DNA of 59,619 nucleotides, taken from positions 20,486,239 through 20,545,857 of the forward strand of contig NC_057725.1 of the NCBI RefSeq assembly GCF_004010195.1, given 5' to 3'. A program made the translations under genes and the position numbers. Below the pieces are notes generated by a model. That model ran no database searches, was not told the origin of the DNA, and saw nothing but the letters and a program-made list of their open reading frames with translations. Source of the stretch: Chiloscyllium plagiosum. Its lineage: Eukaryota. Below, piece after piece: positions 13,270 through 51,221 of this stretch (its first letter is position 1; each line of letters opens with the position of its first letter).

Positions 13270-14112
13270 TAGAACACAGAACAATACAGCGCAGAGCAGG
13301 CCCTTCGGACCTGGATGTTGCGCCAACCTGTGAACTAATCCTAACCCATCGTGCTACATATCCCATCATCATCCATATACTTATCCAAGGACTGTTGAAA
13401 TGCCCCTAATCTGGCTGAGTTAACTACATTGGTAGGCAGGACATTCCACACCCTTACCACAGTCTGAGTAAAGAACCTGCCTCTGACATCCGTCTTAAAT
13501 CTATCACCCCTCAATTTGCAGCTGTGCCCTCTCGTACAAGCAGATGTCATCATCCTTGGAAAAAGACTCTCACTGTCCACCCTATCTAATCCTCTGATCA
13601 TCTTGTATGTCTCTATTAAATCCCTTCGTAGCCTTCTTCTCTCCAATGAGAACAGACCCAAGTCCCTCAGCCTTTCCTCATAAGACCTTCCCTCCAGATC
13701 AGGCAACATCCTGGTAAATCTCCTCTGCACCTTTTCCAATGCTTCCACATTCTTCCCGAAATATGGCGACCAGAACTGCACACAATTCTCCAAGTGAGGC
13801 CGCACTAGCATTTTGTACAGATGCAGCTTGATATCACGGCTCCGGAACTCAATCCCTCTACCAATGAAACCTCACACACCGTATGCCTTCTTAACAGCAC
13901 TATCAATCTGGGTGGCAACTTTGAAGGATTTATGTACATGGACACCAAGATCCCTCTGCACATCCACACTACCAAGAACCTTTCCATTGACCCAGTATTC
14001 TGCCTTCCTGTTATTCTTACCAAAGTGAATTACCTCACGTTTATCTGCATTGAACTCCATTTGCCACCTTTCAGCCCAATTCTGCAGTTTACCCAAGTCT
14101 CCCTGCAACCTG
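13270..14112 (-). mobile_element. Young 5'-truncated CR1 LINE
   Basis: ORFs 13872-14108 (WAERWQMEFN, RDLGVHVH) and 13341-13811 (LVRPHLENCVQFWSP). Microsatellite-like 3' tail near 13270. Confidence 0.92.
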
Positions 14113-17579: not shown

Positions 17580-20500
17580 TAGTCTTGCACCAAGTTGCCA
17601 TCTTGTGGATGTGAGGTTAAACCAAGGACCCATTTGCAGTCTCCGACAGATGTAAACGATTACATGGAACTCAGGAGTTGTCTTGGTTTGATAGGGTTTT
17701 ATTGGGCCAAACCACATGATGTTCACCTTGACTAGGCTGGGCCATGTTGTGTGGGGCTAGGTTGGGTCAGGGAGGGCTGGCTTGGGATGAGCAGGGTAGC
17801 GTTGGTTCAAGCTGAGCCAACTAATCTGCTTGACCTGCTGTGCCTTTTCCAGCTCCACATTTTATTGACTCTGACTATCCAGCATCTGCAGACTTCACTA
17901 TCTCCACATGGGGCTGGATTGGTAAGGGCTGGGCTGCACAAAAATAGGTCTGCAGGGTTGGGATGGGTTGAGTCCTGCTGGGTCACATTGGACCGTTATC
18001 TCAACATTACAAAAAAATGTCTGCTTAGAAGATAAGAACAATTTACTTCAGTGCTTTAAAATGCAGATGAAAATTGAATATTGCAGATTGAAAGAAAAAT
18101 CAAAATGTATCCAAGAGCAATTGACGCCCAAAATCAGCTGTGCAGCAGCTCGATGGGTGGAATGGCCTACTCCATATATATCTTCCTTTAGGTTTGTCTT
18201 TCTAGAACTATTTGGGATTTTCAATTCAAGCAGCAAAGCGATCAGTTCTCAGCAAGAAAATTAAGGGGCACTTCCCTGATGTTGGAGTCCAGATTGCTGC
18301 TGAAGCTGGAGATGGGAGTGCTGAACCTGTGAGACCAGGACTTGGAGAGTGGCTGGAATTATCAACATGTCAAGTCCAGGAGGTTGTTGAGAGGCTATAG
18401 GAGTGAAATACCAAGAGGATAGAAATGTGCATATGCACTGTTACTACCCAGCATGAGAGTCAAAGATCTTCAAAGCTCACCATGATGATCAAAGACAATC
18501 TCTGAAGATCAAGAGTATGGAAAAAGTTCTGGAAACAGACAACTTGGGACATGGGATAAACCACTTCAAATACAGAAACATAAACAGAAATTTCTGGAGA
18601 AACTCAGTAGGTCTGGCAGCAGCTGTGGAGAGAAAACTGCATCAGTCTTTCAAGTTCAGTGACTCGTGCGCTCTGAAAGAGGGTCATGGAACTCAAAATA
18701 TTGACTCTGTTTTTTCTCCATTGGTGCTGCCAGACTGGCTGAATTTCTCCACCAATTTCTGTTTTTGTTTCAGATTTCCAGCATCTACAGTTCTTTGTTC
18801 GGTTTTACCCCAAATACAGGATGGTGCTGTAAAATCAAGGTCTGATTAATTAATAACCTCATAGTGACCATATCCCTAGAGAGCAATGATTGTAGTTTGA
18901 TTTAATTTTGCATTTATTTCCAGGGCATTGGATCTAAGACTAGTATTTAGACTTGAATAAGTTTAATTAATAATAACCCAACCTTAATATCATGTCTTTA
19001 TTATTTTTTTTCATGCTAACAGGTAATACAATTACCCTTTGTTTTACTCAAGAAAGCCTTGTGCTTGGCCCTCACTGCTACAGTAGAAATTAGTTAATTA
19101 TATTTTATTTGGGGAGAAGAACAGCATCCTGCTTAAAACAAAATTAGGTATTCATCGTGACTAAAAGTTGGAAAAAGGGAAGCTAGTCTTTCTCACCTGG
19201 CTGTAACAGTGACCATTACCCAGCAATTGTGTGATCTGAATTGTAATTTATCAGACCAATCTTGGATGGGTGTCCATGTTTTTCTGTATGTGGGCAAGGA
19301 CTGTTTCAGTCCCTGAAGAATTATAATTGAAGTTAAATGTTTTGGAATAATCAACAAATAGTCCTATGTCTGACCTTATGGTATCAGGAAAGTCATTGAT
19401 GAATAGCAAAAGATGTTTGAATCCATGATATGGGACTAGGGAACCTTTAGCGTGGTGCACCTGGTCTGAACCGATAGACCTGCTACCCTTTATCCCAGAT
19501 ATAGAATTTCCCTTTGATGCTTTGAGTCACTACACTTCTGCTACCTCAGCCAGTCCAATGTTACACTGCATAGTAGTTCCTATCCAAAGTCGGAAAGACT
19601 TTGGTCAATATTCCTATGTAGCAGCTTCTAGAAGTATTCAAGAGCAACCTCCAGTGATCGTCAGTTCATTTTTCATGTCTGTTTTAATCACGAATATTTG
19701 CATTTGCCTTTCTCTTCTGAGATAACAAAATTAAGTCTTAATGAAAGTTCCTAATTTCCAATAAATCCTAATCAAGATGATTTTTCCTAATTAATATGTC
19801 AAACTTTATGTTAATATTTAACAAATTGATTAAGGATTATTTACAAAACAGCTATATAATTGGTATTTGCTGCTGATTTGTCAGTCATATTACAAATAAT
19901 TACTCTTGCATACTGTAAGAACCAAGCAAATGATTTTAAATATTAGTTACTAGGAAAGTTAATGTGCAACTTTAATTTGGATACTGACAATTTGCTAACG
20001 TAATTTTCTTTTTAACAATTCATATCCATTATTTCTGCATCTAATGTCCTTATTGATGCAATATCCATCATATTCTACTTTGCTATTGTGCAACAATGAG
20101 AAAGTCATTTCAGCCGCAGTTTTTAATAATTCACGAAAGTTGGAACACAGACTTCATGCCCACATGTCTAATAGTAAATACAGGCAAATTCCATTATGGC
20201 TATCATAGAGTTTTAATAACATGCAGTTGCTTAAATTAGCAGTGTTGCTCAAAAGGGCACAAAGAAAAAGAGAACAGCAGCTCATATATGGTCAATGTCA
20301 GAGTGAGATAGAAAAAAAAGATTGAGGGATAGTTTTGAACAATCCTGGTTGGGGTGTCTTTTCAGTAAACAAAGGATAGAGTAGCTGGGGCATCCTATGT
20401 GAAGTATTTTATAATCCTTGCTACAGAAGGCAGGAAAATTAATAATCATTATAAACATAATTATCAAAATATTTCAGTAATGTGTATCTGCTGTATCGAT

Positions 20501-20784
20501 GTAATCTTTCCAAAGCACAATAAAGCAATAAAATGTTATATGTGTACATAAACGTCTCTAAATAATCAGTCATCACCAATTTGCTGAGCCATGGAGTTCC
20601 AAATGTCACCTGAGCCATTTTGGAAAGAGCCAAGTACAAACCTGTGCACTCCCAAATAAAAAATCTTGGAAACCGTATCTCATTGTAATCAGTGATCCCT
20701 GACTTTCATCTGGTGTATTCCACCTCCACAATGCCAGTGCCAAAAGGGAGTGAGACATCTAGAGGGATGGTCAGAAATTGAGGC

Positions 20785-20975
20785 ATGATCCCAACCCAAC
20801 ATACTTGTATTTCACTCCAGCTCAGACTTTGTCCTTCCAGGAACACCTGAAGAAGACCGCAGCACGTGTCAAAGCCAGAAATAAGTTATTAACCAAATGC
20901 TGATGGGCATTGCTGCCATTACACTCTGGACCTCAGCAGTTGCCCTAACCACGTTCTGCAGCAATATCTGCCAAA
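20785..20975 (+). mobile_element. Ingi/Vingi-like (I-group) LINE fragment, antisense and just downstream of the SLC26 stop codon
   Basis: Translates to PNPTYL..T..QTLSFQEHLKKTAARVKARNKLL ... TLWTSAVAL. Confidence 0.55.
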
Positions 20976-21188
20976 ATTCATCAGTTGACATCCTTGGATA
21001 TTCCTTGATGCTACATGCAAATAGCATTTGTCAGAAAAAGTGTTTTTTTGAGTCTATCCATTTGAATTTACCACTATGTAACGGGGAAAATGGAACCAAC
21101 AAACTATTGCAACAGAAATGCAATGTCAGATGTAGATCATTGTGTTAATAGTTTCTATGCTGGTTTGAAAGATTCAAACAAATTTTTG

Positions 21189-23606
21189 TTACAAAGCTGT
21201 CTCATATTCGATTATTCTTTGATTTCTTGATTTTACACCAGCCCTTTGATGGGAATTACTCACACCTCCTTCCACATGGCAAAGCCCTGTATTTGTGCTG
21301 ATGTTAGGATCTGCCTTAATTTCAATTGTGTCGCATTCAGTTAATGTTTCTCCATTTGTCTCAGGAATGTATTCAGATCCTTGTGGGCTCTGGTTTCTCT
21401 CTGCTGCTTGTTGCAGGGCATACAGAACAGCATCATGGATGCTGCGGAAAGCAAATCTTTGACTTGTTGATTTGAAGTAACCACGTTCTTGTAGACTCTT
21501 CAGAACTGTGCTTGAACAGCTGGCAATGATAAAGCTAACACCCATTCTTTGATATTGCTCAGACAGGTAAATCAAAGCACTCACTCCTTCATCATCCACA
21601 AAGCTTACTGACCCACAATCCAAAATTACAGTGTGAACATCTGCAGTTTGTTTGGATATTTTACGTCTGTACAATGCAGTATGATTTATTCGTCTCAAAG
21701 CATGTTCATCCAATTCAAGGAACTGTGTAGATTCCAGTAACATATGATATTTATCTTCTTCACTGTATAACTCATTATCACTTCCCAAATTACCAGACTG
21801 AAGATAAGAATTGACTTTAAGTTTTATCCAAGACAATAAAAAATCAATATTCCCATAATAAATAGAATCAAATGTTTTTATAATTTTAATTCCAACGATC
21901 TCTTTAGCAGTTTTCTCAACGGATAGGTCAGCATAGTTTTCTGTGTTGGGAATATGGCCGAAAATGGCATTGGATGGTCTCTGAAGCCTGTGTAGAGTGA
22001 GCAAAATTGAGAAAAGCACTCCAACTCCTAAACCGATATCTATATCTAGGATGCAAACTGCTGCAAATGTTATAATTCCAGCCCAAACCTCATATTTATT
22101 CTTTTTGCATGCAAAACAATACTTCCAGAAGAACTCGAGGTAACAGCCCAGATTTGAAATCAGAATAGCACCAAGAACTGCTTTGGGCACCAGTGGAAGC
22201 AGGTTTTCTGCACAAAGCAGAGCTGTAAGACAAAGGATTGCTGCAATCAGCCCAGCTGCTTGGGTTTGACCCCAAGTTTTTTCTTGAACCACTGTTTGTT
22301 CCCAAACCCCAGAAGCTGCAAAAGTCCCTAGAAATGAGAGTAGCAGGTCACAAGACCCCAAAACTATTGTCTCTTGGTGTGGGTGATAGGTTTCATTGTG
22401 TTTTTTGGAGTTTTCTCTCCCTAGAGAAATGCTCACTGCAAAGGTCACCAATGCAACAGTAACGGCATCTTTAACAACAACAGGTATTAAGGAGAAAGAA
22501 GGAAGGACAGGTTTTGGTAAGGTGAAAGGATAATCATTTATCAACCTGAGATTGTGGCTACTCTCTAGTTCCAACCAGAATGACAACCAAATGGAAGCAG
22601 CTATTGCAACAAATTCTATAGGTATGAGATGTCTGCTATAAAGAGAATTAATAACTTTAAAAGGCATCAGAAGTGCCAAAGTGGCTAAACCAGTGATTAC
22701 TGAGGCAGTGTGTGTTTCATGAATATTTTCAATTATAACCTTGCACTTATAAACAAGTGATAAAGAGCCATGATGAATTGGTGGATCAATACCAAGTATC
22801 AAAGTCAGGAGGATGGTGAATAAATGCAAAGCTGTTCCAGCTCTGAAACCATTCATAACATGCTCGGAAATGTATATTCTTATGAAACTGAGGTGAAATG
22901 CTCCCATTGAAATTAAAACAATTCCTGAAACAAAGGTGAGAGTAGTCACATGTAGTTCTCTCGAACATGTTGGAATACAGCCACTGTCAGAATCCACTTC
23001 ATGAGTTTCATTATGACTTATGCCATTTGCAATGAGCAGGCTGGTAAATGCAGATGCTCCATAGGACAGGTGTTTTGTCGTGCCAAGCAAGCAATATAAA
23101 ACTGTGCTAACTAAACTTGTGTAGAGACCATGAATAGGTGGTTGTCCACCGCAGACTGCAAAAGCAAGGGACAGAGGGATGGTCAGTAAACCCACACTAA
23201 TTCCAGACAGCAAGTCTCCTATGAACCATGCTTTCACTCTGTACCTGGAAAACCATCTGGAAAAGGGAATAACTCGTTGGAATAATTTCTTCAAATTGTA
23301 TGAAACTGGTAAGGTTAGTTCAGATGCCTTTCTTTCATATTCACACACCTTTTCTTCATTGTGCTTATCAATGCGGTGAAAATAAGGAATGTCATTCGTA
23401 AATGAAACCCTATGTGATGTTCTTGGGTTATAAATGGAAGTCCTGTCAGTTCTGACCAGAGGGATATTCGAACCTGATTGATCAGGAATTGTGTCACTGG
23501 ACCAAAATGATTCTGAACTTCCCAGCATGTTCTTCAGCTTAGTGCTCTTCCCATCCTTTCTTAACATTGTCTTCAACGATGCATTGATTAAATCTTTTTC
23601 ATCCAT
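21189..23606 (-). CDS. Divergent SLC26/SulP family transporter with STAS domain, single coding exon, 805 aa
   Basis: IPFSRWFSRYRVKAWFIGDLLSGISVG, PPIHGLYTS, GTTKHLSYG, IPIEF, HQETIVLG, VQEKTWGQTQ, LDIDIGLGVG; STAS motifs IYYGN, VILDCGSVSFVD and SIHDAV; C-terminus ETAL. Acceptor tcttcag| at 23623 and an in-frame TAG upstream of the ATG. Subfamily cannot be assigned by eye. Confidence 0.95.
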   Translation of the reverse strand: MDEKDLINASLKTMLRKDGKSTKLKNMLGSSESFWSSDTIPDQSGSNIPLVRTDRTSIYNPRTSHRVSFTNDIPYFHRIDKHNEEKVCEYERKASELTLPVSYNLKKLFQRVIPFSRWFSRYRVKAWFIGDLLSGISVGLLTIPLSLAFAVCGGQPPIHGLYTSLVSTVLYCLLGTTKHLSYGASAFTSLLIANGISHNETHEVDSDSGCIPTCSRELHVTTLTFVSGIVLISMGAFHLSFIRIYISEHVMNGFRAGTALHLFTILLTLILGIDPPIHHGSLSLVYKCKVIIENIHETHTASVITGLATLALLMPFKVINSLYSRHLIPIEFVAIAASIWLSFWLELESSHNLRLINDYPFTLPKPVLPSFSLIPVVVKDAVTVALVTFAVSISLGRENSKKHNETYHPHQETIVLGSCDLLLSFLGTFAASGVWEQTVVQEKTWGQTQAAGLIAAILCLTALLCAENLLPLVPKAVLGAILISNLGCYLEFFWKYCFACKKNKYEVWAGIITFAAVCILDIDIGLGVGVLFSILLTLHRLQRPSNAIFGHIPNTENYADLSVEKTAKEIVGIKIIKTFDSIYYGNIDFLLSWIKLKVNSYLQSGNLGSDNELYSEEDKYHMLLESTQFLELDEHALRRINHTALYRRKISKQTADVHTVILDCGSVSFVDDEGVSALIYLSEQYQRMGVSFIIASCSSTVLKSLQERGYFKSTSQRFAFRSIHDAVLYALQQAAERNQSPQGSEYIPETNGETLTECDTIEIKADPNISTNTGLCHVEGGVSNSHQRAGVKSRNQRIIEYETAL

Positions 23607-26317
23607 GCATTCAAATATCTAATCTGAAGATAAAAGTACAAATAAGCATATTTGGTTTTGTTTTCTGGATTTTGTTAAGTTTTCACTTTCATTCTTAAAC
23701 CTCTAACATATAGCTTCTGATACCCATGGATCCTCAATATCATTGTTCCCAACAGCTTTCACTTAGGAAGCAATGAAATCTCTTCTCCAGTGCTCCCATG
23801 CCTTACATCATCTCTAATTGCAAACATGCCTAGAATAGTGGTTGAGATGGGAAATCTCATAACCTTTAAAAAGTACTTGCCTGAGCACTTGAAACATCAT
23901 AATGTTCAAGGCTATAAGCCAAGTGCTGGGAAGCAGGACTGGTGTAGATATAAAGTAATTTTGTTGTTGTAGACTCAAAGGGTCTCTTTTGCACTATATG
24001 ATTCTATGATTAAGAATCATTCTTCATGATATTTCTGCAATACAAAACCTCCACTTCTCCAATTCTGAAACTTTATTGCTGGAACAGCACAGCAGGTCAG
24101 GCAGCATCCTCTCGGTTACTGCCTGAACCACTTTGCTTTTTCAGCAATAAAGTTTCAACTTTGATCTCCAGCATCTGCAGACCTTACTTACTTCTCCAAT
24201 TCTACCTTACTTCAAATATGGGAAAAAAAATTCCATAAGAGTGTAAAGGAAGAGCAAAGATGTTCATTTCTTTCTGAAATCTGCCAGTGCTTACTTTACA
24301 CAAATTAGACTTTTTGTCAGTAAAAGGTCAAAATTCAAGATTTTATAAGACAACATATCTTTTGACTTACCACAGAATATTTGCTAGTTTCATGTTTAGC
24401 AAGTGTCCACCGAAAACAAATGTCAAACTCCAAATGACATTTTCATATTGACTTGGTTACAGATATAAATAACCTCTAAAAAAAGACAGAAAGCAAATCA
24501 TTGATATAGAAAGTTAAATTTACAAGGAATTGTGCACATTTCAAGCTTGATCTGATAATTAGCAAGTAACATTCATGCCTAATAAGTGTCAGGCAATGAC
24601 CATCTCCAACAAGAGAGGATCTAATTATCTCAGTGTCATTCAATTACATTGCCATAATTGAATGCCCCAGCATCAATGTCTTAGTGTTATCATTGACCAG
24701 AAATTGAACTGATCCAGCCATATACTGTGGTTTTAAGAGTCGGTCAGAGGTTGGGAATGCTGCAGTATACAGTATAACCCACCTCCTGACAATATCAAAT
24801 TCCACCCTACCCCCATGCCCAAGATGTCTATGTACCATCTACAAGACACAAGCCAGAGGTACGATATGATCATCTCCATCGGCCTGGATGAGTTTCAACA
24901 ACACTCAGGAATCTGTATGAAGTCCAGTTCTAAGCAACCTACTTGACTGACACCGTATACACCACCTTGAACACTCACTCCCTGCTCCATTTTACAGTAG
25001 CAGCACTGCAGCTACTCTCCAAGGCTTGGTTGCAAGTAATTTCCAAACTCATGATTTCTACTACCTGAAATAAATCAATGAACTGCAGATGCTGGAGTTC
25101 TGAAATAAACAAAAACAGAAATTGCTGGAAAAACTCAGCAGGTCTGGCAGCATTTGTGAAGAAAAAAAACCGGGTAAATGTTTCAAATACTTTTTAACTC
25201 TGCTTTCTTTTCATTGATCGTGTCAGACCTGCTGAGTTTCTCCAGAAATTTCAGTTTCACTTCTACCACCTAGATCAATAAAGACAGCAGATACCTGGGA
25301 ACACTACCACCAGCAAGTTCATCTCCATGCCACTCACCATCCTGACATTGAAACATAGAAATGAAATGATACAACACAGAAGGGGGCTATTTGGTCCATC
25401 TTGTCTTGTTTGTCATTCCTTTATTATTGCTGGGTCAAAATCCTGGAACCGAGCCTCCCTAACCGCATTGTGGGTGTCCCTACAACACATGGACTGCAGC
25501 AGTTCTCGAAGGCAGCTCATCACCACCTTCTCAAGGGCAATTAGGGTGGGATAATAAATGCTGGCATAGCCTGTGAAGTAATTAAAAATATATATATAAC
25601 TCTGCAGGCATCACAGCTGATTTTAATTCAATTCTCATTTGATGTGCACATGTGGAAACCTTCCAACCAGAGTTAATGGTTAATAATCACACTTAAATAT
25701 TTCTTTTTATGAGGCCAAGAGGCCATTTGGAGCATTCTTATCCAAAACAATATGAAAGAGTCCAGTAGAAATTAGAGGTCAGATTTCAGCTTTTACTCAG
25801 TGTTTTTGATCTTCTCTATACCGGACAATATATTCACCAGTCGATTCATTGTTTGAGATCACAACTACAGGAATTGAGTGTGTAAATCTATTAGCTCAGC
25901 AAGAAAGCTGAACCATGTTGGATCAAAAGGTAATGAAACTCAGAGGGAGGGATGGATTTTCATTGAGACACAACATCATAAAAGGGGGCGGCATGAGTAA
26001 GGTATCTGAACTGTCCATCTTCCTTCCCACCTATCTGCTCCACCCTTCTCACCAACCTATTACAATCACCTCCTACCTGCATCTACCTACCTTTGCCCCA
26101 GCCCCAACCCCTCTTTGCCTATTTATTTTCAGCCCCCTTCCCCTTCCCTGTCCTGATGAAGAGTCTTGCCCGATATGCCAACTCTCTTGCTCCTCAGATG
26201 CTGCCTGACCTGCTTTACTTTTTCCAGTCCCACATTTTATCGACTCTGACTATTCAGCATCTGCAATCCTCACTATCGCCTCAGTGAACAAACTGGTAAA
26301 AATAAGTAAAAGTGCTC

Positions 26318-26330
26318 ACTTACCAGATGT
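26318..26330 (-). promoter_or_regulatory. Candidate 5' splice donor of an upstream non-coding exon of the SLC26 gene (alternative at about 24365-24375)
   Basis: Consensus CTG|gtaagt at 26324/26323 in non-repeat sequence. The coding exon begins with an acceptor, so an upstream donor is required. Confidence 0.35.
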
Positions 26331-28141
26331 CACTTCTTTGTAGCTATTTCATGCAGGGTATCTAATTTGTGACATTCGCTTTTGAGGAAATTTGGTCAGG
26401 GCTTAGGACCAATTTTGTGCCACCAACAGCTCTCATTCTGAATGAATATCATGGTGATGTAAAAAGTTTCAGCTGATCTTCAAAGATGTAACTACTGACG
26501 TATCATCGTTCAATCTGTCTCAAACACAATAAAATGATCAAGCATGATGCAGTTAAACCAACTGTAGCATTCACTCCTCACCCCACTCTCACTATCACTC
26601 TCTACATCCATAAAATGGACAGACTACTCATTGTCATATTGTTGTTTGTGGGAGCTTGTTGTTGTGAATATTTCTGACATTATAGCAGTGATTACATATC
26701 AAAAGATATTTCATTGGCTGGAGAGCATGGTAAATGTAATTTATCCTTCCTGTCTTCCATCCCTCCCTGCCCTCCCTTCCTCCTATCACTCTGCCAGTCT
26801 ACTTGTAGTCCGAAGTGACATTATCACTCAGTTAAACTCAAGGGAGGTCATGTACAAGGACACATGTATGTATTAATTAACATATGACTTCTAATCTGAA
26901 CTTTATTCCCATTTGCTGAGACCTTGAGTGTTTGTCAGTGTTCCCTGTGTGATCACTACATACATTTAAAATCCAATAAATTATGCAAGAAAGTGTTGTA
27001 AATAAATGGAATTACATAATGTGTAATCTGTGAAGATCAACTAACGTATCTACAGGAGTTTACAAATTTCAAATGAGTAATATGCAAAAAGGTGGCTAAT
27101 TGTGTACAAATTCTCTTCAGTTTTATGTGGACGTTCCATTTCTACAAATGCATGGAATTGGCTGTAGGCAGATTAATTTATTTTGTAAAAGAAAGTCAGT
27201 TAATTATTGTAAATAAATTATCAAGTAATAGTGAGTTCAAATCCCACAGTTCTTCTGTCAAGAAATACATTGAAATCATTTGGCAGCTAGAGTAAGGGCC
27301 AAGTATCTCTGTTAACCCTTTCTCGGGTGGTTGCAACAAATAATTTAGTTTAGCATGCAGCTATATATATGTCAATTAAAGGTTTAGTTAACTAATTCAA
27401 AACAAAAGAGTCAATTACAGTTTCCGAGAGTCAAACAAAGATAATTTTACTACCCCAGGTAAAAAAGCGACATAAAACACAAACGCAGTCAATTTTAAGT
27501 CATTATTCGTTCTTTTTAAAAATTTATTTTTGCCCATGAGAGGTCTCAGGTCTAATGATCTGATAAAGGAAGTTAAAGTTTGATAGTTACAATTGCCACC
27601 ACATAAAACATCCTTTAAGAATAAAATACCAGCAGTGGTGGGATGAGGCCATCAATTGGCATTTAGTGCCTTGTTGGGTGAGTGAGTCACCTGCCACGAG
27701 TAATTTCCATCCCTGTACTATGTCAACCAATTTTATGCCACCCCTCACATGCCAGCTGCAATGGAAAGGGTTGGGTTATACAACAGAAAATGAAGAAACT
27801 GCTTGACGTCCTGTCAGGTCAAAGGCCATTGAAGACATGCAGTGGAATCTTATCAGGGCCTGAACAATGTGGGCAATGATGGGATTTATGGCAGAATCAT
27901 ATGAGTGTTGGGAAAGCCTATCTTGACGTCAGGAGCAATTTGCTGCACCTTTTTTTGCATCAGTCAGAAAGCGAGGTGAGTTTCTCATTAGGCTGCGGTG
28001 AGTAGCTAATTAAAGGAGATTATAGCTTGTTAAAGTCCTTAGTAACTGCACAACTCACCTCTTTAATATTCCCATCCTTCCAAATGAACCAAACAAATGA
28101 GACATTGAGAAATCTCAGAGCAGGTTACCTGACAACTTGAG

Positions 28142-28529
28142 TCAAGATTAGAGTGGTGCTGGAAAAGCCCAGCAGGTCAGGCAGCATCCGAGGAGCAGGA
28201 AAATCGACGTTTCGGGCAGGAACTCTTCACCAGGAATCCTGAAGGGTGGGATAGCTGTCTCTCAGGGGTCCGAACAAAGTAGGTCAAAGGCAGCCCCCAC
28301 TACCAGTCCAGGGACTTGGTCACAGTCAGTCATCTGCTGGGGGTGTTCAGAGTCAGATTCCTCTCTCCACAGAGGGGATGATGAACTAAATGTTAGGAAT
28401 CCTGATGAAGGGCTCCTGCCCAACACGTCAATTCTCCTGCTCCTCGGATGCTGCCTGACCTGCTGTGCTTTTCCAGCACCACTCTAATTTTGACTCTAAT
28501 CTCCAGCATCTGCAGTCCTCACTTTCGGC
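28142..28529. mobile_element. Fold-back Penelope-type insertion with a roughly 150-bp internal captured segment
   Basis: 16-bp TSD tacctgacaacttgag at 28126-28141 and 28530-28545; inverted arms of about 100 bp. The centre (about 28244-28397) resembles about 29022-29178. Confidence 0.88.
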
Positions 28530-29469
28530 TACCTGACAACTTGAGCTCACTGTTTGCGCCAAATGACCTCCATGTTTGGTACTGAGTACCAACTACTTTG
28601 GACATGCTTCATGGGCACAAGACAAATGCACCCCACATCCATGGACATTGGCATCCAGTACGTGCCAGCCTTTAAAAACATTCATGGTATGGCATACTTA
28701 CAGTATGCTTCTGTATCTCGATGCTGCATTGGCCACCATCATTGTAAGGTTCCCATAAGGAAACTGTTTGCTCAGGGATATGCACAACTCATGGACTGGG
28801 TCAGGCTGCATCTTGGGCTCCTCACTGGCTGTCATGGCACTCACCCACTCTAAGCCCACCTGGGTGCTCACAGCACCTCTGCCTTGCATAGCCTTACTTT
28901 ATGCACTTTGTCCCCTCAGCCAGATATACTGATTCGTAGTACTTATCTCTTTCCTTACAATGTAGTGCAAACATAAAGGTAGGAAGCTTGTCATGGTTGT
29001 TTTCAGACCTCAGTCAAGTCAAGGGGGGATAGTTTTCTCTCAGGGGTCCTCATAAAATAGGTCAAAGGCAGCCCCCACAAAGGCACCCTCACAAAGGCAG
29101 TCCAGGCACTTGGTCACAGTCAGTCATCTGCAATCAGATTCCTCTCTCCACATAAGGGATGATGAACTAAGTGTCAGGCACCTCCCTTCAAGTTTTCTGC
29201 CACATTAGGGCTGCTTCCTAGAATGAGAGGTAAGCAGATATTAAGAGATATGAAAATGGATGGTACAGCTGTTACTTTTGGTGCAGGTAGGGAGGTGTGC
29301 CAAGCTCATGAATAATCAGCATAGAGGCCATTAAGGGGTTTGGATGGGTGAAAGTGAGTGAGGGAAGATGTTGCAGGCAATAGTGAGGATGGTAGAGCAT
29401 GGACCTTGGTGGGAGGAGGGTACAGTATCAGAGACAGAGTGAATGTGAGGTATCAAAGAGAAGATGGTG

Positions 29470-29700
29470 GCACTTAAGCTGATGGAGTGGAGAAGGCCTT
29501 CACTTTCTCCAATTGTACTGTGCATTCCCCAGTACAGCTAAGACTACATGACCCAGAGTAACCTCAGACTAGGCCAGTATAGCCTACTGTCCTGGCCTCC
29601 ATTGTGGTGCAAGTGGATGTTCTGCTTGTGTACCAGCCCTCTATCAAAACACTACCCTCCACGACCCTGGGGAAAATAATTCCCTGACAGCCATGTCTGG
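29470..29700 (-). mobile_element. Possible decayed Harbinger Myb/SANT-like gene remnant
   Basis: Frameshifted LA.SEV...NAQ...RKVKAFLHS-like remnant resembling the better-preserved copy at 36.9 kb. Confidence 0.3.
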
Positions 29701-30378
29701 GCAAATGTCAGGAACATTGAAGTGCAGGTCCATACTGACAGTATTTGTCCAGGTGCACCACGGGGCTTTGAAAGATGCACAGGCACAAGGCATGCTGGTC
29801 TTTCAGAAGATATTCACTGAGTATTCAGGTAAGATGGGGTCAGAAGCAGTGAGAGGGGCAACACTGAGGCAGGTCGTTAATGAGATGAGCTTGGGAAGAT
29901 GAGATGAGAAAATCCACTTGGGCTCTCAACAGCATAACCCTCCAAACGATGCAATGGCAGCCAAAAAAACTCAAGATTCAGCTTATTGTCTCCCTGCTTC
30001 TTGCAAAAATGCTCTCCTTTATTGCCAATTTTCCGCCTCCACTGCATCTGTTCCCAGGAGGACCAGTTCCATTACAGAACACACCAGATGGCCTCCTTCT
30101 TTAAAGACCGCAATTTCCCTTCCCACATGGTTGATGATGCCCTCCAGCGCATCTCACCCACGTCCTGCACCTCCACCCTTGAACCCCACCCCTACAATCA
30201 CAACAAGGACAGAACCTCCCGGTCCTCACCTTCCACCTCACCAACCTCCATATACATCTCATCATCCTCCACCATTTCTGCCACCTACAAACGGATCCCA
30301 CCACCATAGATATATTTCCCTCCCCACTCCTATCCACTTTCTGTAAAGACCGTTCACTCCGCAACTACCTGGTCAGGT

Positions 30379-30438
30379 NNNNNNNNNNNNNNNNNNNNNN
30401 NNNNNNNNNNNNNNNNNNNNNNNNNNNNNNNNNNNNNN
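30379..30438. other. Assembly gap (60 N)
   Basis: Run of n inside the Penelope element. Confidence 1.
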
Positions 30439-30903
30439 CCCCCCTAACCAGCCACCCTCCCCCCGGCACCTTCTCCTGCTACCATAGGAATTGCAAAACC
30501 TGCACTCACACCTGCCCCCTCACATCCGTCCAAGGCCCCAAAGAGCCTTCCACATTCATCAAAGTTTCAGCAGCACTTCCACACATGTCATTGACTGTAT
30601 CCGTTGCTCCCATTGCAGTCTCCTCTAGATTGGGGATTCTGGTCGCCTACTTGCAGAGCGCTTCAGAGAACATCTCCAGGACACCTGCACCAATCAACCC
30701 CACTACCCCATGGCTGTAAATGCAGGTCCTGGTTCTCCTCCATTGCCACTCCAACACCATCTGACACTTGGAGGAAGATCGCCTCATCTTCCGCCTTGGG
30801 ACCCTTCAACCCCATGGCATCAGTGTGGACTTCACCAGTTTCTTCATTTCCCTTCCCCTTACCTTACCCCCATTTATCTCTGCACCCCCGAGGCTCCCAG
30901 GCT

Positions 30904-30940
30904 CATTCCTGATGAAGGGCTTTTGCCCGAAACGTCAATT
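30904..30940 (+). ncRNA. Minimal hammerhead ribozyme core in Penelope terminal repeat, sense to the ORF
   Basis: CTGATGA(30909-30915)-AGGGC-TTTT-GCCC-GAAA(30929-30932)-CGTC. Confidence 0.75.
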
Positions 30941-33900
30941 TTCCTGCTCCTTGGATGCTGCCTGGCCTGCTGTGCTTTTCCAGCACCACTCTAATCTTGA
31001 CTCTGATCTCCAGGATCTGCAGTACTCACTTTTGTTTCATGGTCTCTAATTGTCTAGCATATAATAAGCACAGGCAAGAGCATATGAAACACTTGATGGA
31101 CTCTGCTTTCTCCTTGAGATGATAAAACCTAGAGATGGATAATTGTCTTACAGCATAATACACAGGGCCTGGAGCACTTCTTCCTGTGGAGTTTGTCTGG
31201 ATCTGGGACCAGAATCAACCTGGCCAAGGTTTGAGTGCTTTGATTCTTACTTAGTCATTACTTAGAAGTTCTTACTTAGAGAACACTGACTACAGCATCC
31301 TGACAGCCAACAGATTGGTGCCGGTGTCTACCAGTGAGCAACCTTTGCAGACCTGGAGGAACTGCCCAGGGGAATATATCCTGACCATCCAATGGACTTA
31401 CTTGGTTTTACACCTCTTCTGAAACAAGGACATTGTCGAGCAGATTAGTTAAGCTATCTTGCTCTTTGAGCCAAAGGAACTAATGGTGGCACAGGGTAGA
31501 CATGGAATAAAAATGTACATATTTTATGCGTAAAATGAAAGACTTGGGGGAGGTGCGGCATAAAGGGATAATAGCTGTTATGCCAGATAGCTTGGGTCTA
31601 TCATCAGTGATGACAGGTCACTAGGACCTTTGGGAAGAAGATTCTTAGGGAGTCCTGCTGAGCCATATTTCTGGAAACATTGAAACAGTGTAAGTAGCTA
31701 ACAAATGTTCATTAACTTGGATTAATGTAGATTCCAGTCCTCAACTGTCAAGAGTATCCAGGCACTGCTGGTGATGTTGATACAGCTGTCAATCCCTCTT
31801 TGGGAGGCAGGGGTAAGGATGGAGGGCCTGGTGGGGGAGATCTGTAAAAATCCAACAATAATCTCTAAAATAAAGCCTATAAGGATTTCAGATGGAACTT
31901 CTTTAGACAGAGAGTAGTTGGAATGTGGAGCTTGCTATCACAGGGATATTTGAGGCACAAAGGAAAGAGAGATTGAAGGGGAAGCTAAAAAAAAGTGCAG
32001 GAGGGGGAAAGACTTCAAAGGAGTTGTTGATCAACTCAGATGAAGTAAGGTGGGAGGAGGCTTGTGTGGATTATAAACACTGGGTTAGATCTGCTGAGCT
32101 GAACAGCCTGTTCCATGATCTAAATGCTCTGTAATAAGATGTAAATTTTTAAGACATGGCGGAGTGTAAATGTATCATTTACAATTAGCTCTATATATCA
32201 AACTACATTGACCTAACTGACACTTTTATCTTATTAAAAGCCAATAGCATTAACAGAGTTTATTAATATTCAAAGCCTAACTGGTAATGTTTCAGATAAA
32301 GAATGTGTTTTAAGAATAGTTATTAATTCCGTAAATATAATTGAGTTTGTTTTGAAGACTACAAACAAATCATTCATTACATGTGAGCATTTCATAAAGC
32401 AATGCAATAGTAGCATGTGACAGTCATCAGATATACAGTTCCCAGAACAATTTTCCAGTAAGTTCTGCTCAGAGTTGTCTGATTCATGCGTGAAGTGTCA
32501 GTTCTGCAGTTAGGGAAGGTAACATTCCTAGAGAAACAGAATCCCGTAGATCTTTTCGCGTGAACCTTATTATAACCTGTAGGAGGAGTCCGATGTGAGG
32601 GGTTCCAATGCAGGCATTAATTCATTTGAGCCCCTGCAACTGGAGGCTCAGGAGATTTTAACTGCAAGTGGGAGTGGGATCTTTGCAAATGCAAGGACAG
32701 GAAGGGACACTTACCCTACAGCCAGCTGGTTCACTCTATAATTTGTGGTGCTGAGGGATGAGTACAGTAAAGGGGAAGGGAAAGTCGAGGGGAGGGGAAC
32801 ATCTGAGCTTTATTTTTGAGAGCTATACAAGTACTCCAGCTCTGCCTGGCTCAGCAGAAAATCTTCAAAAAGTGCAAGTTAAATTGTACCTTGGTGTCTT
32901 CTGGTCACGATCCTGCCAGTTGCTGTTAGTTCTTGTTGTAGATCTGCCAATCCTTACTGCCCACTCATATTGCCCACTCTTCCTCACAGCTCTGATACAG
33001 GGCAAGGGATCATTGACCTCCAGTTAAAAGCTTACATGGGTCCAGTTGACATAATCGGAGCATAACTTTGACATTATCATTAGGGTCCTGTTTAGTTTTT
33101 TGAAGTAAGTATTTGCCCTATAAGAAACAGCAACGGCAGTCAAAACAGCAGCCAGTGGAAATAGTTCAGGAGATCACAAGCTCAATATTAAATCGCTTTA
33201 TGCATCTTTCCTCATACTAGAATAGGGTTAAAATGAGTAAAGGAGTTTGATTAATGCTAAAACCTCACTTTTGACCATGCTGTGATCAAAATACTAAATT
33301 ACTGCTCTGTTTTGCTCGACTTACCCATTTCCTAATGCTGTGGTTAAAGGTGGTGAAGAGGTGGTTGAGTCAATGCAGAGAGAACTAAAGTAATCCTCAG
33401 TAACAGTGTTGTGAAGTTTAAATGCGGTCTCCCTAATAAGGACTAGCTTTAATATCCCTGCCAAAAATAGAACTGGCATACAGTAACCCAATCTCTTAGT
33501 TTGATATGACCCTTTACAGCTGGTAATCCCATCAAATGTCCTCTGCCAAAATTCTAAGGCAGAGTTTCACATATTGCCCATTGAGGTGAGGTATTTTATG
33601 TAATATAAAACTATTTGTGATATCCACATATGATGTTCCTTGGTCCTTTACAAGTGTTTTTTTTTAAGTTAATTTTGACAATACATGATTCTACTTCACG
33701 AATCACCTAAAGTAAATTTAGCAATAAAATTCTTTAACAAAATTCAAAATTTAAATTAAGGGCTTTTCTGAATTTCTTGGAAATTGGGACAAGGGCTATG
33801 ATCTCTCCTCCATCTGTAGATTCAGAGGCAGATGCTGTTAGATACTAATTTTTCTATCCTGCACTCATCGAGTTTTGTAGCCAGATGTTTTCTTTAACCT

Positions 33901-34034
33901 GGAGTCAGTCAGGTCAGATTTAGGAGCTCTCAGGCTCAACTTCTAATCTTAGTTGTGTCGAGTTGGAGCTGCTGAGTGGAAGGTGTGACTTGTTCCAAGA
34001 GGGAATTCAAGGGGAACCATTTGAAGTTAGATAA

Positions 34035-34205
34035 AGGGGTGATTGCATTTGTCCTGCATGTTGTGGGTATAGGGTCTTTTGTCTTGGATAGTAACTGGCA
34101 AAATGTGGCTGTTGGTTTGTGCGCTGTCATTATTCCCAGAGGGCATAGGAGTCCAGTAGTCAGTTCTGAGATGTTTCTAATATAGGGTAGGGTGGTCAAA
34201 GTGTT
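34035..34205 (-). mobile_element. Penelope-like (Poseidon-like) ORF fragment
   Basis: TLPYIRNISE...AHKPTATFCQLLSKTKDPIP, the region preceding the GIY-YIG domain. Confidence 0.75.
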
Positions 34206-34489
34206 GAGAATTTATTGAATGGAATTGAATCTTTACAGGATAGAGGTTTGAAGGAAATGTAGTCAAGATAGATGTGGCAAACACTGCTTCTTATTGGTTG
34301 ACCAACATCATACTATTGAAAGTGAGCTGAAACAAATAGTCACAAGGGCAAATGATATCCACTTCCTGCTGATGTATGATAATGCTTCATCGTGCCCATA
34401 ATTTAAATAGTTAGGTGCCTCATGATTATTAAATGTGATTCAGTCTCTTCCTTGATCACCAATGTGTTCTAAACTCTAAGCAGTGACCC

Positions 34490-34920
34490 CCTCTTCCTAT
34501 AGGCATCAGAAACTAAGGCAATCTACAGGAATCTCAAAGCTCCGGAAAAGTACCATTGGGAGTGTGTTCGCAAGATGCTCCAAATCCAGTGGCAAGAAAG
34601 GCAATCAACAACATTCCCGCTGAGGCGCTAATCACTCAAAACCAGATGTCCACACAGCAACTGTTTACTTCAAACTGGATTGGGGCAGGAGACTCCCAGG
34701 CACATAATCGAGATGTTCTCAAAGTATCAAAGGATCAAAAGTTCCCATTGACTCATCCGAGTCTCCAGCTTGTGACTGACCAATATGGAGAAGGATTTCT
34801 CAGGAAAATGCCAATGGACTGACAGACTTTCTCAGGAATGTGTGATGGTGAAGTCGAGGCATTGGTGAGGGTGCAGAAACCTCCACACGTCCCGCCCGCC
34901 TGACTGTTCAAGCATCAAAA
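34490..34920 (+). mobile_element. RTE-clade LINE 3' fragment
   Basis: ASET..IY.NLKAPEKYH..CVRKMLQIQWQER remnant. Confidence 0.6.
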
Positions 34921-35099
34921 AGAGAAGGTGACATGAAAAATTCTAAACTCAAAAGGCAAATTAGAAACAAAGACAGGAAATCACTTGAAAGAATTCATGG
35001 GAAATGAATGGCTAATTATTTAAGTTCAGACAATTGTCAGAAATATAGAACATGGTCTCTAGACAAAACAGTAGAATAATTTATTTACATTTATATTAC

Positions 35100-35430
35100 A
35101 TCTTTCAGTCTGTTTCAAAGTACTACACAACCAAATAACTGCTTTGAAGTATAATGAAGGTAACACAGCTGTTAACAACTCTTAGAAACTGCAATGGAAT
35201 AAATAACCCATGAAAGTGGTTCAGTGGTGTTAGTTGGAGAGATAAATATTGGCAAGGGCACTGGGAAAACTCATTTACACCCATCCGAGAGGGCTGGTAG
35301 GATCCCATTTGATGTGTCATCCAAAAACATTGCCTCAAAGTGCAAGCTGAAGTTACATGCTCAAGTCCTTGAGTGATGTTTAAATGCATGGTGTTCAAAC
35401 ATAGAAGTGAGTGCCACCACCAAGTCAACA
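35100..35430 (-). mobile_element. Old Deu-domain SINE (SacSINE1-like)
   Basis: Minus-strand tRNA-like head (ttggtggtggcactc..actcaaggacttgagca) and a decayed core resembling the copy at 58.1 kb. Confidence 0.45.
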
Positions 35431-36856
35431 CTGATAACTTTCATTGTGTTTTTGCTACTTTTAGATATGAGCAGGACTTTACTGTGTTTTCTTCCATCTT
35501 TTAGTTCTGGGGATATCTTTTGCTGTGTTTGTTATATTTAAAAAATAGTGTAATGGAAACTCAGTATAACACAAGGAAATGCTACTTTATACAAGAGACT
35601 ACAAAAATTAGTAAATCCAACAAAATATTCCCTAGATTTTCAGAATTTGCAGTTTTCCTTCGAATGTTAAAGTAGATTCCAAACCAGTCTGCTGAAGCAG
35701 TGATGCACATTTAAGATATAAGCCACTCACTCCATCCTGCAGCTAATCATTACAAATATGTCCACAAGATGGCAGTTCTTTACAGGAATTTCTACCATTT
35801 AAAGATTGTTGGAATCTTAAACTCAAACAATTAGCAAAGTTGTTAGTAAAAGAATCAGTAAAATCAGTGCTACTTGAAAAGCAAAGTCAACTGTTGGTGT
35901 ACTTTGTCAATTCAACCAATTTGCTTGTTACTAGGTTGTAAATGACAATGAACTGACGCGTAGTGGCATAAGAGAATCTGTTGCAGAATTCTATCATTAA
36001 CAGAATAATCAAGACTACTGATCTAGAAATGGATAGAAATATGACACTCGATTTGCAAAATGCCTTTAAGAAATTCTGAATTCAGTAAAGAACCACGAGA
36101 ATTTCCTTACTCAGTTGTTTAGAAATGCTGAAAATAACTTAATATATGCCTTGACTCATGCTTCTGCTCGTGTGACATGACCTCCTCCAAGGTAACAGGG
36201 ATATAACTGAAGCCATATGTTGTTCAACTCCCTAGTGTTGGCAATTCGATTGTTCACCTTTTACACAAACAATATATCATGTATTTCAAAACAATGTTAT
36301 ATAAATGTAGTGAGAGTTTATCTCTCTAATGGCAACGATAACTTCTACCAGCTTACAGGTTGAATGTTTGGAAGCTCAGGCTGGTGAGCCTTTCATTGCA
36401 ACATCTCCGCAGCTGACTGAGGGGAAAAAGATGGCCCAGGCCGCTGACCCTTTTGGGTCCTCTCCTGGGGTGGCCATCTTGGGTTGGACATTCATTCAAT
36501 GCAATGGCTACATTAAAACTCTACGAGTTGAATCTTAGTTATTTTGGCTAAATGTCACTTACGTCGAGTTTTTTTAAAGACTATTTGCTGTGAGGCCTAG
36601 CAAGATTTCTCACCATATCTTACCAAACACACCTCATTATTTACCTACCCGGCCTCTATGGTGTCCCTGTCATCTGATTCTAGTTCCATGTGACCATGTG
36701 CCAGTCCCACAACAACTTGCCAATCAGAGGATGTCTGGCGATAGCGAATTCCTCGTGTTCATGCCATATTTAAAAAGCACCCAGACAAACGCTGGCAATC
36801 CGAAGATGCCCTCTTCAGTGACACACATTCAACCAGAAGATGTCACAGAAGGGGAA

Positions 36857-48531: not shown

Positions 48532-49121
48532 ATGGCCGGATTGTACAACCCGACCCTGAAGACTCTTGAAGATCTGACTCTGGACTCGGGTTATGGAGCA
48601 GGGGATTCCTGCAGGTCGCTCAGTCTCTCCTCTTCCAGATCCAACTCGCAGGCCCTGCAGTCAGCTCACCGGGGGAACTGGTGGTACCTGTCCGGCTCCA
48701 TGAACAGCCGCAACAACAGCTGGGACACTGTCAACACGGTGTTGCCCGAGGAGCCGGAACTCGGCGACATCTTCTTCAAATGCCCCCGGCTCCCGGAGCT
48801 CGAGGAGTTCCCCTGGACCGAGGAGGACGTGGGCAAGCTGCTGCGGAAAGGGCGAGCCGCCGGGGAGGCTGGCAAACTCTTCTCGCAGGAAGCGGTGAGG
48901 CGCCTGTCCATGCTGCTCAGGAGGGCTCTGCTCCGGGTCACCAGGGAAGCTCAGAGGCTCAGCGTCGTCCACTGCAAATGCACCAGGTTCGAGATACACA
49001 GCGCCATCCGGCTCGTCCTGTCCTGGTCCCTGTCCGAGAGCTGTGTCTCCGCTTCAGTCAAAGCCCTGTCCCTGTACAACATGAGCGCTGGGGACCGGCT
49101 GCGGAAAAGCAAGAGTTCCAG
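48532..49121 (+). CDS. ABTB2: ABTB2 (ankyrin repeat and BTB/POZ domain protein 2), coding exon 1
   Basis: [35 protein letters not shown]...[14 protein letters not shown]...[20 protein letters not shown](R). Kozak context acaATGg; donor AG|gtacct, phase 2. Confidence 0.93.
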
Positions 49122-51221
49122 GTACCTCCTGCATTTTTGTTTCCTCCTTGTTTCAAAAAAAAAGTGCAATGGACAGAGCCCGGCTCTAAAATAGTCACTC
49201 AGCACAAAACCAACTGTCTGTACTCGGGTACAGACCCCCCCCCCCCCTCTCGTTTTGAAAGCTTTGAGCCAAATTGAGTTGGGTTTAGTCTCTGAGGATT
49301 TCCCCACTGAATGAGCACAGACGCCATGAGAAAGGTGGGTGGGCAAAATGAAAATGTTGCGCTGATTTGTTTGGGAGAAAATTTAACTTTTATTCATGGG
49401 CAAAAAAAACCATTTACAAACGCATTTGGAATTGGAAACAAAAACGTAAATTGCTGAAAAAGCTCAGCAGGTCTAGCAGCAACTGTGCAGAGAAATCAAT
49501 GTGAACGTTTCGGGTCCAGTGACTCTTCCTCGGAATTTCTGTTTTCGTTTCTGATTTACAGCATCCGCAGTTGTTTTGGTTTTTACTCGGATCTTGCAAC
49601 TTTTCTTCAATGAGTGTGTTGCACGTTTGGATGCCTCAATCTCATTGCAATACGATAACTTGCTACCTGCATTCAATGACTAGGGTAAGCCCAAATGGGG
49701 TGGGGGAATCTTGTGTGACACAATAACAGTGTCCCTCCTTCTGGTCTAGGAGACCCTAGTTCAAGTCGCACCAGCTTCAGCTGTGTGTCTAACCTCTCTG
49801 AACAGGTTCAACAGCTCCAAGAATGTTATCATAGTTACCATCCCCATGGTGCACAGAAATACCTTGGTGGCCTTTCCTCATTGCAACTTTACAACACTTG
49901 CCCAAACTTTAGTGTGCTCCTTAGTAAGTAGTCCTGGACCTTGACATGCACCACTCTGCAGCACTAGATTGAGGACACCTTATGCTGGAAGACCAGTAAG
50001 CTTTGGGCACATCAGAGTGCCATTCGCTGACATGGTGGTCCTCCAGCAGCAGTTAACATTTGCTCGGTGAACAGCTTATAGAGCCCAGAGTTCTGCAATT
50101 TGTAACTGTTTGGGAGGAACCCTGACAAAAAAACTATTACATTTCTCTCCAGATCATCTTTGCAAAGATATATTTCAGCCAGAGTTGCTGTACCAACTTT
50201 GCAGTGATGCACAGAGATTGCTTTCCTGATTTATTTAAGAGCATAGAGTGACTTGTCCTTTTTTTTGTCTAGTCTACCTGATCTAGTGCAGCTTGAACCT
50301 GACACTGAAAGCCTGATGTAAAAATTGTTCAATTTCTCCATGTGAACATTCCTGCTTTGTGGGTGGCCTTTTTATTTAATAAACTCATATTAAAGTTGTT
50401 CGAATGTTATCTTATGACTGAAGTACAAATCAACTTTACATATGTTAATTGTTCAAGGAGGGTGTTGCTTTGGACGTATGCGATTCAATCATACAGAAAT
50501 CTGCACTTGGATACATCCTTGGGTGGAAGCTTTCTCTGCTATGTGTAATGATCTGAAAATAATTGAGTAGCATTAGTTCAATTCTTTAGGGACATATATC
50601 AGCAGCATGACAATTTCATATAATTCTGTTCAAATTCTGGTTAGTTTGATAACTTCACTCCAGTAAATTGGTAATGATAATTGTAGAAAAGGAAGACAAA
50701 ATCAGATAAATGCAAGCAAGGATATTTTTCTGGACTTGATGGCTGCTGTTTGGTCAGGGAGTTAATGCTCAATTTCTCAAATAGTTAAAGAGCTTAGAAA
50801 TGTTTTCTACAACATATAATTTCTTTTGCAAACATATATACCAAAATTGTTGGTTAAGCAATGAAAACTGCAGCTTTGAAGTTACATTCTCTGTATTCCT
50901 TTAGCTATAGTTCGCCAACAATACTCTCCTTTGGTTAATTGGTTTGTTATCATTATCCTATATGATTAATAAATTAAAAGTTTTTATTCTAACAGACTGA
51001 TCTGAAAGTGTGACAGTTAAATCCTAAGTAATAGTTTTGCATAACATTTTTGTCAATTTTATACAGAGCATAGTCACTAGATTGGAGATAAGCTGCTAGA
51101 CTTGGGAGAATGAGCTGCAATGCACAGAAAATCACCAGATGACTGATATTAACTTTAAGAAACTGCTGTGATCCCATTATGTGTTGGTCATTAGGATTGA
51201 AATAGTGAAGTGCTGAGGCAA

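Follow-up and report, generated by a model that had tools for sequence, protein, structure and literature searches.

What becomes of an anion exchanger when every canonical contact of its anion site is replaced, and from which branch of the SLC26 family does such a protein come? These questions are raised by a 59,619-nucleotide (nt) stretch of the shark Chiloscyllium plagiosum (contig NC_057725.1 of assembly GCF_004010195.1, positions 20,486,239 to 20,545,857), called the window here and numbered from its first letter. The longest of its ten ATG-initiated open reading frames (ORFs) of at least 120 amino acids (aa) runs without interruption on the minus strand from 23606 to 21189, spans 2,418 nt including the stop and specifies 805 aa. 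Pfam places Sulfate_transp at aa 128-507 (E = 6.6e-69) and STAS at aa 631-723 (E = 1.8e-11), both above the curated cut-offs, and this order of membrane domain and STAS is the SLC26/SulP layout. A preliminary description, made from the sequence, had proposed an uninterrupted SLC26 coding sequence (CDS) of this length, free of transposable-element insertions, and both points are borne out. In a self-BLAST of the window, repeat cover is zero over the ORF, whereas most other 2.5-kb bins have 0.05-0.29, and repeat-derived read piles end at the ORF edges. The protein is already in NCBI as an automatic annotation, and a 'prestin-like' protein of Chiloscyllium punctatum is 99% identical to it. The main point, overlooked in that description, is that its anion site is replaced.

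The anion site and its possible consequences

Intact full-length orthologues, 65-99% identical, occur in 21 named species (sharks, rays, skates and the chimaera Callorhinchus milii), under the automatic RefSeq name 'prestin-like'. Twenty-two orthologues were counted, after exclusion of the duplicates P0012, P0053, P0057, P0061 and P0062 and the unrelated P0058, and were compared with 444 other SLC26/SulP proteins (450-1,299 aa), among which A6, A8, A9, pendrin and invertebrate sequences are over-represented. On mammalian prestin numbering the canonical anion site comprises Q97, F137, S396, S398 and R399; in all 22 orthologues these positions read L, S, V, E and Q. The replacements are rare elsewhere: L145 (for Q97) is found in 14 of 434 other proteins, S185 (for F137) in 3 of 433, V434 (for S396) in 1 of 442, and neither E436 (for S398) nor Q437 (for R399) in any of 442. 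Altogether 22 positions, including H410 in the NQE motif (N to H), are invariant in the orthologues and carry a residue rare in the other proteins. T142 is likewise invariant in 22/22.

The SLC26 fold is retained in the predicted structure. A model of aa 95-736 built from 82 alignment rows reached a predicted local distance difference test score (pLDDT) of 90.3 and matches SLC26 structures throughout, with the 14-transmembrane (TM), 7+7 fold expected of a model guided by the family alignment. Its best structural match is prestin (Z 53.9, root-mean-square deviation 3.6 over 573 residues; Foldseek template-modelling score 0.80-0.82). Prestin (SLC26A5) shares fold and domain order with the shark protein and is its best PDB match (human prestin, 329 bits; Z 51-54), but identity is about 28-29%, and the shark gene has one coding exon.

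Prestin mutants indicate what the new residues may do. In chicken prestin S404D and R405C each abolish transport, and in rat prestin R399Q largely or fully abolishes nonlinear capacitance (NLC) (PMC3988826). Prestin S398E keeps NLC and loses salicylate block (PMC8755724), S396E/S398E in mammalian prestin show no anion binding in simulation (bioRxiv 10.1101/2024.01.29.577264), and acidic substitutions at the anion site are interpreted as mimics of bound chloride (PMC9584906, PMC10699807). S398E and R399Q were engineered in prestin; in the shark protein they are the natural wild-type state. Judged by these parallels, anion transport has quite probably been lost.

The cytosolic parts are unusually well conserved, including the normally variable STAS insert. 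The insert core has 21 invariant columns out of 44 (13 orthologues); for the TM domain the figure is 199 of 442, for the tail 4 of 60, and core and gate helices have 45% invariant columns. An N-terminal RVx[FY] motif is present in 21 of 22 orthologues and a C-terminal YE(T/S)xL end in all 22; we take the first to be of the RVxF type that docks protein phosphatase 1 and the second to be of the PDZ type. There is precedent for SLC26 proteins controlling CFTR by way of STAS and PDZ scaffolds (PMC6813192).

A model can be drawn from these observations. Glu436 would lie at the anion-binding spot, between the ends of the TM3 and TM10 helices, as a permanent stand-in for the anion, with its partner Arg turned into Gln437 and the further anion contacts altered (Q97L, F137S, S396V and the N-to-H change in NQE). 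The exchanger cycle would be lost and the membrane domain would serve as a self-liganded anchor. The work would be done by STAS with its insert, the N-terminal RVxF-type motif and the C-terminal PDZ-type motif, and the role may be to regulate or position a partner, for example an anion channel. To this reading of the protein as a self-liganded, non-exchanging scaffold or regulator we assign a probability of about one half.

Several points weigh against it. Its functional steps are all borrowed from single mutants of prestin, never from the combined changes, and loss of the Arg alone is no bar to transport, since the position is Val in SLC26A9 rows and Thr in A10 rows. That the new pocket residues never vary among the orthologues is explained by a new substrate no less than by a locked site. 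The RVxF and PDZ motifs are short. As for the model, 69 of its 82 alignment rows are ordinary SLC26 proteins, so that it cannot reveal pocket chemistry, and an initial model, based on 16 rows, reached a poor pLDDT of 52.5.

Transcript, coding exon and locus

Four of 20 listed sequencing runs were aligned to 18200-37050. Runs X1 and X2 come from the same study and are presumed to be RNA; none of the runs listed is on record as RNA, and the evidence for transcription is the spliced joins. X1 and X2 each give one long contig that joins 33116 or 33101-32890, 26514-26324, 24475-24371 and 23618-20496 or 20111. All three skipped stretches carry GT donors and AG acceptors, so the RNA was spliced. The SLC26 gene is transcribed, with three non-coding 5' exons spliced to one coding exon. 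X3 gave fragments only, and X9, a single-cell run of which about 2 in 100 reads were sampled, has zero depth on the CDS. Of five CDS differences listed for the runs, beside which there are 163 further differences, four are silent.

These joins alter the start of the gene as first described, with a splice acceptor 17 nt before the ATG, an in-frame upstream stop and one recruited non-coding 5' exon. A CAG does sit 17 nt ahead of the ATG in the genome, but both long contigs enter the coding exon at 23618, behind a TAG at 23620-23619, 12 nt ahead of the ATG. The predicted junction into the coding exon thus exists, at 23618 and not at 23623. The supposed stop is that TAG, the acceptor itself, which is intronic in these transcripts; the nearest in-frame stop in the spliced leader lies 28 codons upstream, in exon 24475-24371. 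Non-coding 5' exons are real but not single, three being given by joins and one or two more predicted. For the one at 33326, the 73 unlisted nt of X1 record 4 predict a bin depth of 1.43, and 1.42 is observed. The candidate at 36650 resembles, at 82% over 45 aa, the N-terminal extension of a whale-shark gene model, and in the window it carries a stop.

The spliced leader is at least 535 nt long and holds 16 upstream ATGs, one of them 4 nt before the first Met. That Met has a weak context and is found only in the window and in Chiloscyllium and Hemiscyllium proteins; M14 or M27, both in better contexts, is the more widely shared start. The minus-strand stretch 23625-23619 carries two AG acceptors spaced 5 nt apart, and the whale-shark model treats it as coding. 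The sequences suggest that the distal CAG is used in whale shark and that the TAG acceptor arose later. At the other end the longest contig stops 11 nt past an ATTAAA (20127-20122), the probable polyadenylation signal.

Within the window the CDS is without introns, continuous in the genome and in the contigs, and other SLC26 genes do not lie beside it. A single coding exon behind non-coding exons, away from other SLC26 genes and with an ABTB-type neighbour, has the look of an old retrocopy. A poly(A) remnant and a target-site duplication are not expected to survive in so old a gene. In cartilaginous fish slc26a1 and slc26a2 have two coding exons, where jawless fish have four to six (PMC12357937, section 12). 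From an A1/A2/A12-side parent with two coding exons, a single intron loss, or a shared history of intron purging, would suffice, and the CxxxC motif and other residues that point to these intron-poor genes (below) weaken the retrogene argument. The retrogene claim accordingly stands as to the intronless CDS, while retroposition is a plausible origin, favoured slightly. In at least five of the species listed, among them Heterodontus, both Scyliorhinus, Leucoraja and Callorhinchus, several RefSeq accessions give one identical protein, which fits splicing variation confined to the untranslated region (UTR) and does not by itself demonstrate a single coding exon; that structure is seen in this window alone and in no other species, a further count against the reading given above.

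Table 1. Features of the SLC26 gene and its neighbour in the window
Feature	Position	Strand	Basis
Single-exon CDS: 805 aa, TM domain ~aa 100-541, STAS ~aa 542-735, C-terminal PDZ-type motif	21189..23606	-	unbroken contig cover, X1 record 4 and X2 record 7
Codons E436-Q437, start of TM10, equivalent to the prestin S398-R399 anion site	22296..22301	-	coordinates computed from ORF start
C210-x3-C214 motif, loop before TM4, common to SLC26A1/A2/A12-type proteins	22965..22979	-	
Last exon: 12 nt leader, complete CDS, ~1.08 kb 3' UTR	20111..23618	-	contigs
Non-coding 5' exon, 105 nt, with nearest in-frame upstream stop	24371..24475	-	contig joins
Non-coding 5' exon, 191 nt	26324..26514	-	contig joins
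Non-coding 5' exon, ~228 nt	32890..33117	-	contigs align from 33116, 33101, 33118; AG acceptor 33119-33118
Predicted further 5' exon	33326..33397	-	strong donor at 33325 and depth arithmetic
Predicted alternative 5' exon	36650..36785	-	ends at GT donor; X3 depth 2 in bin
Neighbour: first coding exon of ABTB2/BTBD11-type gene, CpG-rich stretch	48532..49122	+	GT donor at 49123

The ABTB2/BTBD11-type gene (Table 1) stands head to head with the SLC26 gene and is not part of it; the identity of its exon comes from a protein-atlas lead (Histone_ABTB, score 0.86), to be read as a lead only. A promoter shared by the two genes is not supported, because the known SLC26 5' exons end 12-15 kb short. A Pfam search for a host or second gene in 119 of the 128 stop-to-stop frames of at least 75 aa outside the tandem array matched two reverse-transcriptase fragments only; short exons would escape it. 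The array itself, 83.7 tandem copies of a 34-nt unit at 37122-39963, lies about 340 nt upstream of the predicted 36.7-kb 5' exon and yields a spurious 198-aa ORF, and ten copies of a 37-nt unit (47434-47808) directly precede the CpG-rich beginning of the ABTB-type gene. Broken fragments of the long interspersed element (LINE) type occupy 51-2418 and 6223-6813 on the plus strand and 13341-13811 and 46664-47077 on the minus strand; Pfam finds reverse transcriptase at 51-392 and 6223-6810, and the others were judged by translation. A gap of 60 N at 30379-30438 falls within the second leader intron.

Range and placement in the family

The cluster search gave 11 clusters at 65-99% identity, after which identity falls to 31% or less. 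A HMMER scan of 1.84 billion 50% cluster representatives has, among 150 hits listed, one orthologue (chimaera, 66%), the rest being at 25-34%. No bony-vertebrate or cyclostome orthologue was visible in the collections searched, and the protein atlas gives generic SLC26 clusters only. Together with the spliced contigs, this range upholds the view of an old, intact, transcribed, lineage-restricted SLC26 gene without a close bony-vertebrate relative. It may well be a separate paralogue that was already fixed when chimaeras and elasmobranchs diverged. Table 5 of PMC9396271, on the kidney of the red stingray, lists separate slc26a1, a2, a5, a6, a9, a10 and a11 contigs; rays own a separate slc26a5, so the gene described here is not shark prestin.

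For phylogeny 51 labelled proteins were aligned, some of the rows being labelled by tree position. Set 1 has 45 rows and 555 columns, with P0199, P0214, P0286, P0294, P0010 and P0408 omitted. Set 2, chosen after the CxxxC observation, has 564 columns including that motif, with P0199 restored, P0015 dropped and two stretches masked. The trees hold three A1/A2/A12-type lineages, two of them partial, no shark A1, A2, A5, A9 or A10, and no A7 or A11. A first FastTree, which pulled the clade to the prokaryotic-type outgroup, served reference picking only. In set 1 the clade, on a stem of 1.84, is sister to A3/4/5/6/8/9 (Shimodaira-Hasegawa-like approximate likelihood ratio test, SH-aLRT, 82). Set 2 places it outside the A3-A9 crown with 100/100 support and, on a stem of 2.01, joins it to A10, A1/2/12 and amphioxus in a polytomy.

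The approximately unbiased test (p-AU) refines this placement. Set 1 rejects sisterhood to gnathostome A5 (0.023/0.006), A6 (0.0002/0.0008), A3/A4 (0.004/0.002) and A10 (0.008/0.003); it does not reject A8 (0.54, 0.40; constrained search 0.29), A9, A8+A9, the A10 stem, the A1/2/12 stem or amphioxus. Under the mixture model, set 2 rejects A8 (0.017), A5 (0.023), A6, A3/A4, A9 and any place inside A1/2/12, with 19 of 78 placements tested; under LG it leaves A8 (0.12) and A5 (0.067) open. Nesting within the sampled A1/2/12 proteins is rejected (1.6e-11) and sisterhood to the whole subfamily is not rejected (0.36-0.54), three lineages being sampled.

An origin in the A3/A4/A5/A6 group, as initially proposed, is not supported: sisterhood to A6 and to A3/A4 is rejected in all four fixed-topology tests that list them, and to A5 in three of four. 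The motifs RYRVK.W and IPIE, offered as markers of that group, are family-wide, being present in A10, A1/2/12-type and invertebrate rows (IPIE also in human SLC26A2). The suggested phylogeny check instead finds a separate, strongly diverged branch with no 1:1 orthologue among the named members. Orthology to prestin was rejected (p-AU 0.023, 0.006, a borderline 0.067, and 0.023; S398 and R399 replaced; outside the A3-A9 crown in set 2), as was the use of best-match ranking as a sign of prestin kinship, since an A1/2/12-type query gives the same ranking.

Individual residues point to other relatives. CxxxC before TM4 is present in 22/22 orthologues and in 8 of 425 other rows, six of them A1/A2/A12-type; human SLC26A2 has it too. 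Pro315 is common to the clade and the A10 and A1/2/12 rows. Of ten columns that split A3-A9 from the rest, three put the clade with A3-A9, five put it with the rest and two with neither. SLC26A1/A2/A12 proteins share CxxxC, Pro315, Ser146 and DC in STAS with the shark protein, and their genes are also intron-poor (PMC12357937). Unlike them, at about 29% identity, it has a replaced anion site, and its gene lacks their one conserved coding intron. The gene slc26a12 is absent from cartilaginous fish and adjoins slc26a2 (PMC11145369).

On this sequence evidence the parent could well lie on the A1/A2/A12 or A10 side. A parent at the stem of A3-A9 is unlikely, if credible, and A8 as parent is improbable. 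Against the first of these stand the very long stem (1.84-2.01), which may pull the placement rootward; the set 1 tree, with its sisterhood to A3-A9 and A8 left standing; and the thin sampling of A1/A2/A12-type and shark lineages. Outside every named subfamily on present evidence, the gene belongs to an apparently undescribed SLC26 branch. No account of it was found in a literature search whose coverage leaves out most subscription journals, and no paper was found that mentions any of six of its accessions. The main text of PMC11979771 is without 'prestin', 'slc26' or 'abtb2', and the available portions of PMC11145369, which defines slc26a12, and of the slc26a1/a2 survey PMC12357937 contain no description of it.

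Alternative readings and significance

The pocket may have been repurposed rather than locked. E436 would then bind substrate as a protonatable residue, much as in UraA, and the same elevator motion would carry protons or a solute that is neutral or cationic (nucleobase-like, urea, or a methylamine such as trimethylamine N-oxide, TMAO). Prestin S398 superposes on E290 of UraA, which binds uracil (PMC3988826, section 9). The invariance of E436, Q437, S185, L145 and T142 in 22/22 orthologues and the conservation of core and gate helices are what this reading would ask for; F137S would enlarge the cavity; and the gene is restricted to a lineage whose members build up urea and TMAO (PMC9601739). 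UraA and the other NCS2 (SLC23) nucleobase:H+ symporters are built on the same 7+7 fold (Z about 30), and their TM10 also begins with a Glu, but at 13-14% identity and without STAS, and the likeness rests on one ligand site, where it would be convergent. Against it, too, depth is low (about 1-25) in the three runs, and the leader with its 16 upstream ATGs suggests tightly limited translation. Against a renal role, weakly, the name 'prestin-like' is absent from the seven slc26 contigs in Table 5 of PMC9396271. The literature searched held nothing usable on a shark TMAO carrier or on the SLC26A2 loop cysteines. This reading is unlikely, and the fuller version of it, a thirteenth SLC26 subfamily of vertebrates, restricted to cartilaginous fish, whose UraA-like acidic pocket transports a neutral or cationic solute, possibly urea or TMAO, is slightly more doubtful still.

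It is rather improbable that the protein is an anion transporter or channel-like conductor of altered selectivity, with E436 protonated or gating. The fold and many family motifs are kept (E331, E412, the STAS aspartates), and SLC26A9 conducts chloride without the Arg (PMC9584906). All five anion-site positions are changed together, however, an acidic residue at the S398 site left chicken prestin without transport, and none of the 442 other rows has Glu there.

Descent from, or retro-replacement of, SLC26A8 (testis anion transporter 1) would make the gene the chondrichthyan counterpart of A8, with a role in sperm. Multi-exon, uATG-rich leaders (uATG, upstream ATG) and retrocopies are common in testis. 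A8 proteins are likewise long-branched and lineage-restricted, with the pocket eroded in some members, A8 is regulatory toward CFTR, and QEK after TM10 is common to the clade and A8 rows. Among the 120 rows listed of 316 matches, the SLC26A8 profile finds A8 in tetrapods only before passing to A6; A8 from sharks, rays or ray-finned fish is absent from them. In keeping with a counterpart, no cartilaginous-fish A8 stands among those matches, A8 is absent from the stingray kidney table as available in PMC9396271, and sisterhood to A8 is not rejected in the set 1 tests or in set 2 under LG. It is rejected under the set 2 mixture model, and the set 2 tree puts the clade outside the A3-A9 crown; only 4 of 26 A8-diagnostic columns are shared; identity is 24-28%; the S398 site is still Ser in A8 rows, which are without CxxxC; and two long branches may attract each other. 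SLC26A8 is, besides, a multi-exon gene. The A8 reading is accordingly improbable, and a testis role reached by convergence would be compatible with a scaffold or regulator.

A chloride-independent voltage sensor or motor like prestin S398E, which retains NLC without anion sensitivity (PMC8755724), is very improbable: prestin is the best PDB match in sequence and fold, but it also heads the non-family matches of an A1/2/12-type protein and so indicates no special kinship, R399Q largely or fully abolishes NLC (PMC3988826), both charges are said to be necessary (PMC10699807), and rays own a separate slc26a5 (PMC9396271).

The gene thus represents an apparently undescribed branch of a disease-linked transporter family, masked by the automatic label 'prestin-like', and shark 'prestin-like' matches should not be taken as hearing genes. 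As a long-conserved natural protein of the S398E/R399Q type, it offers a ready test of whether an SLC26 protein with a built-in charge folds, moves and functions. If it is a pseudo-transporter, it would give the SLC26 family a regulatory role. If it carries another solute, it would represent a change in substrate class within the SLC4/SLC23/SLC26 fold, with possible relevance to osmoregulation or reproduction in sharks.

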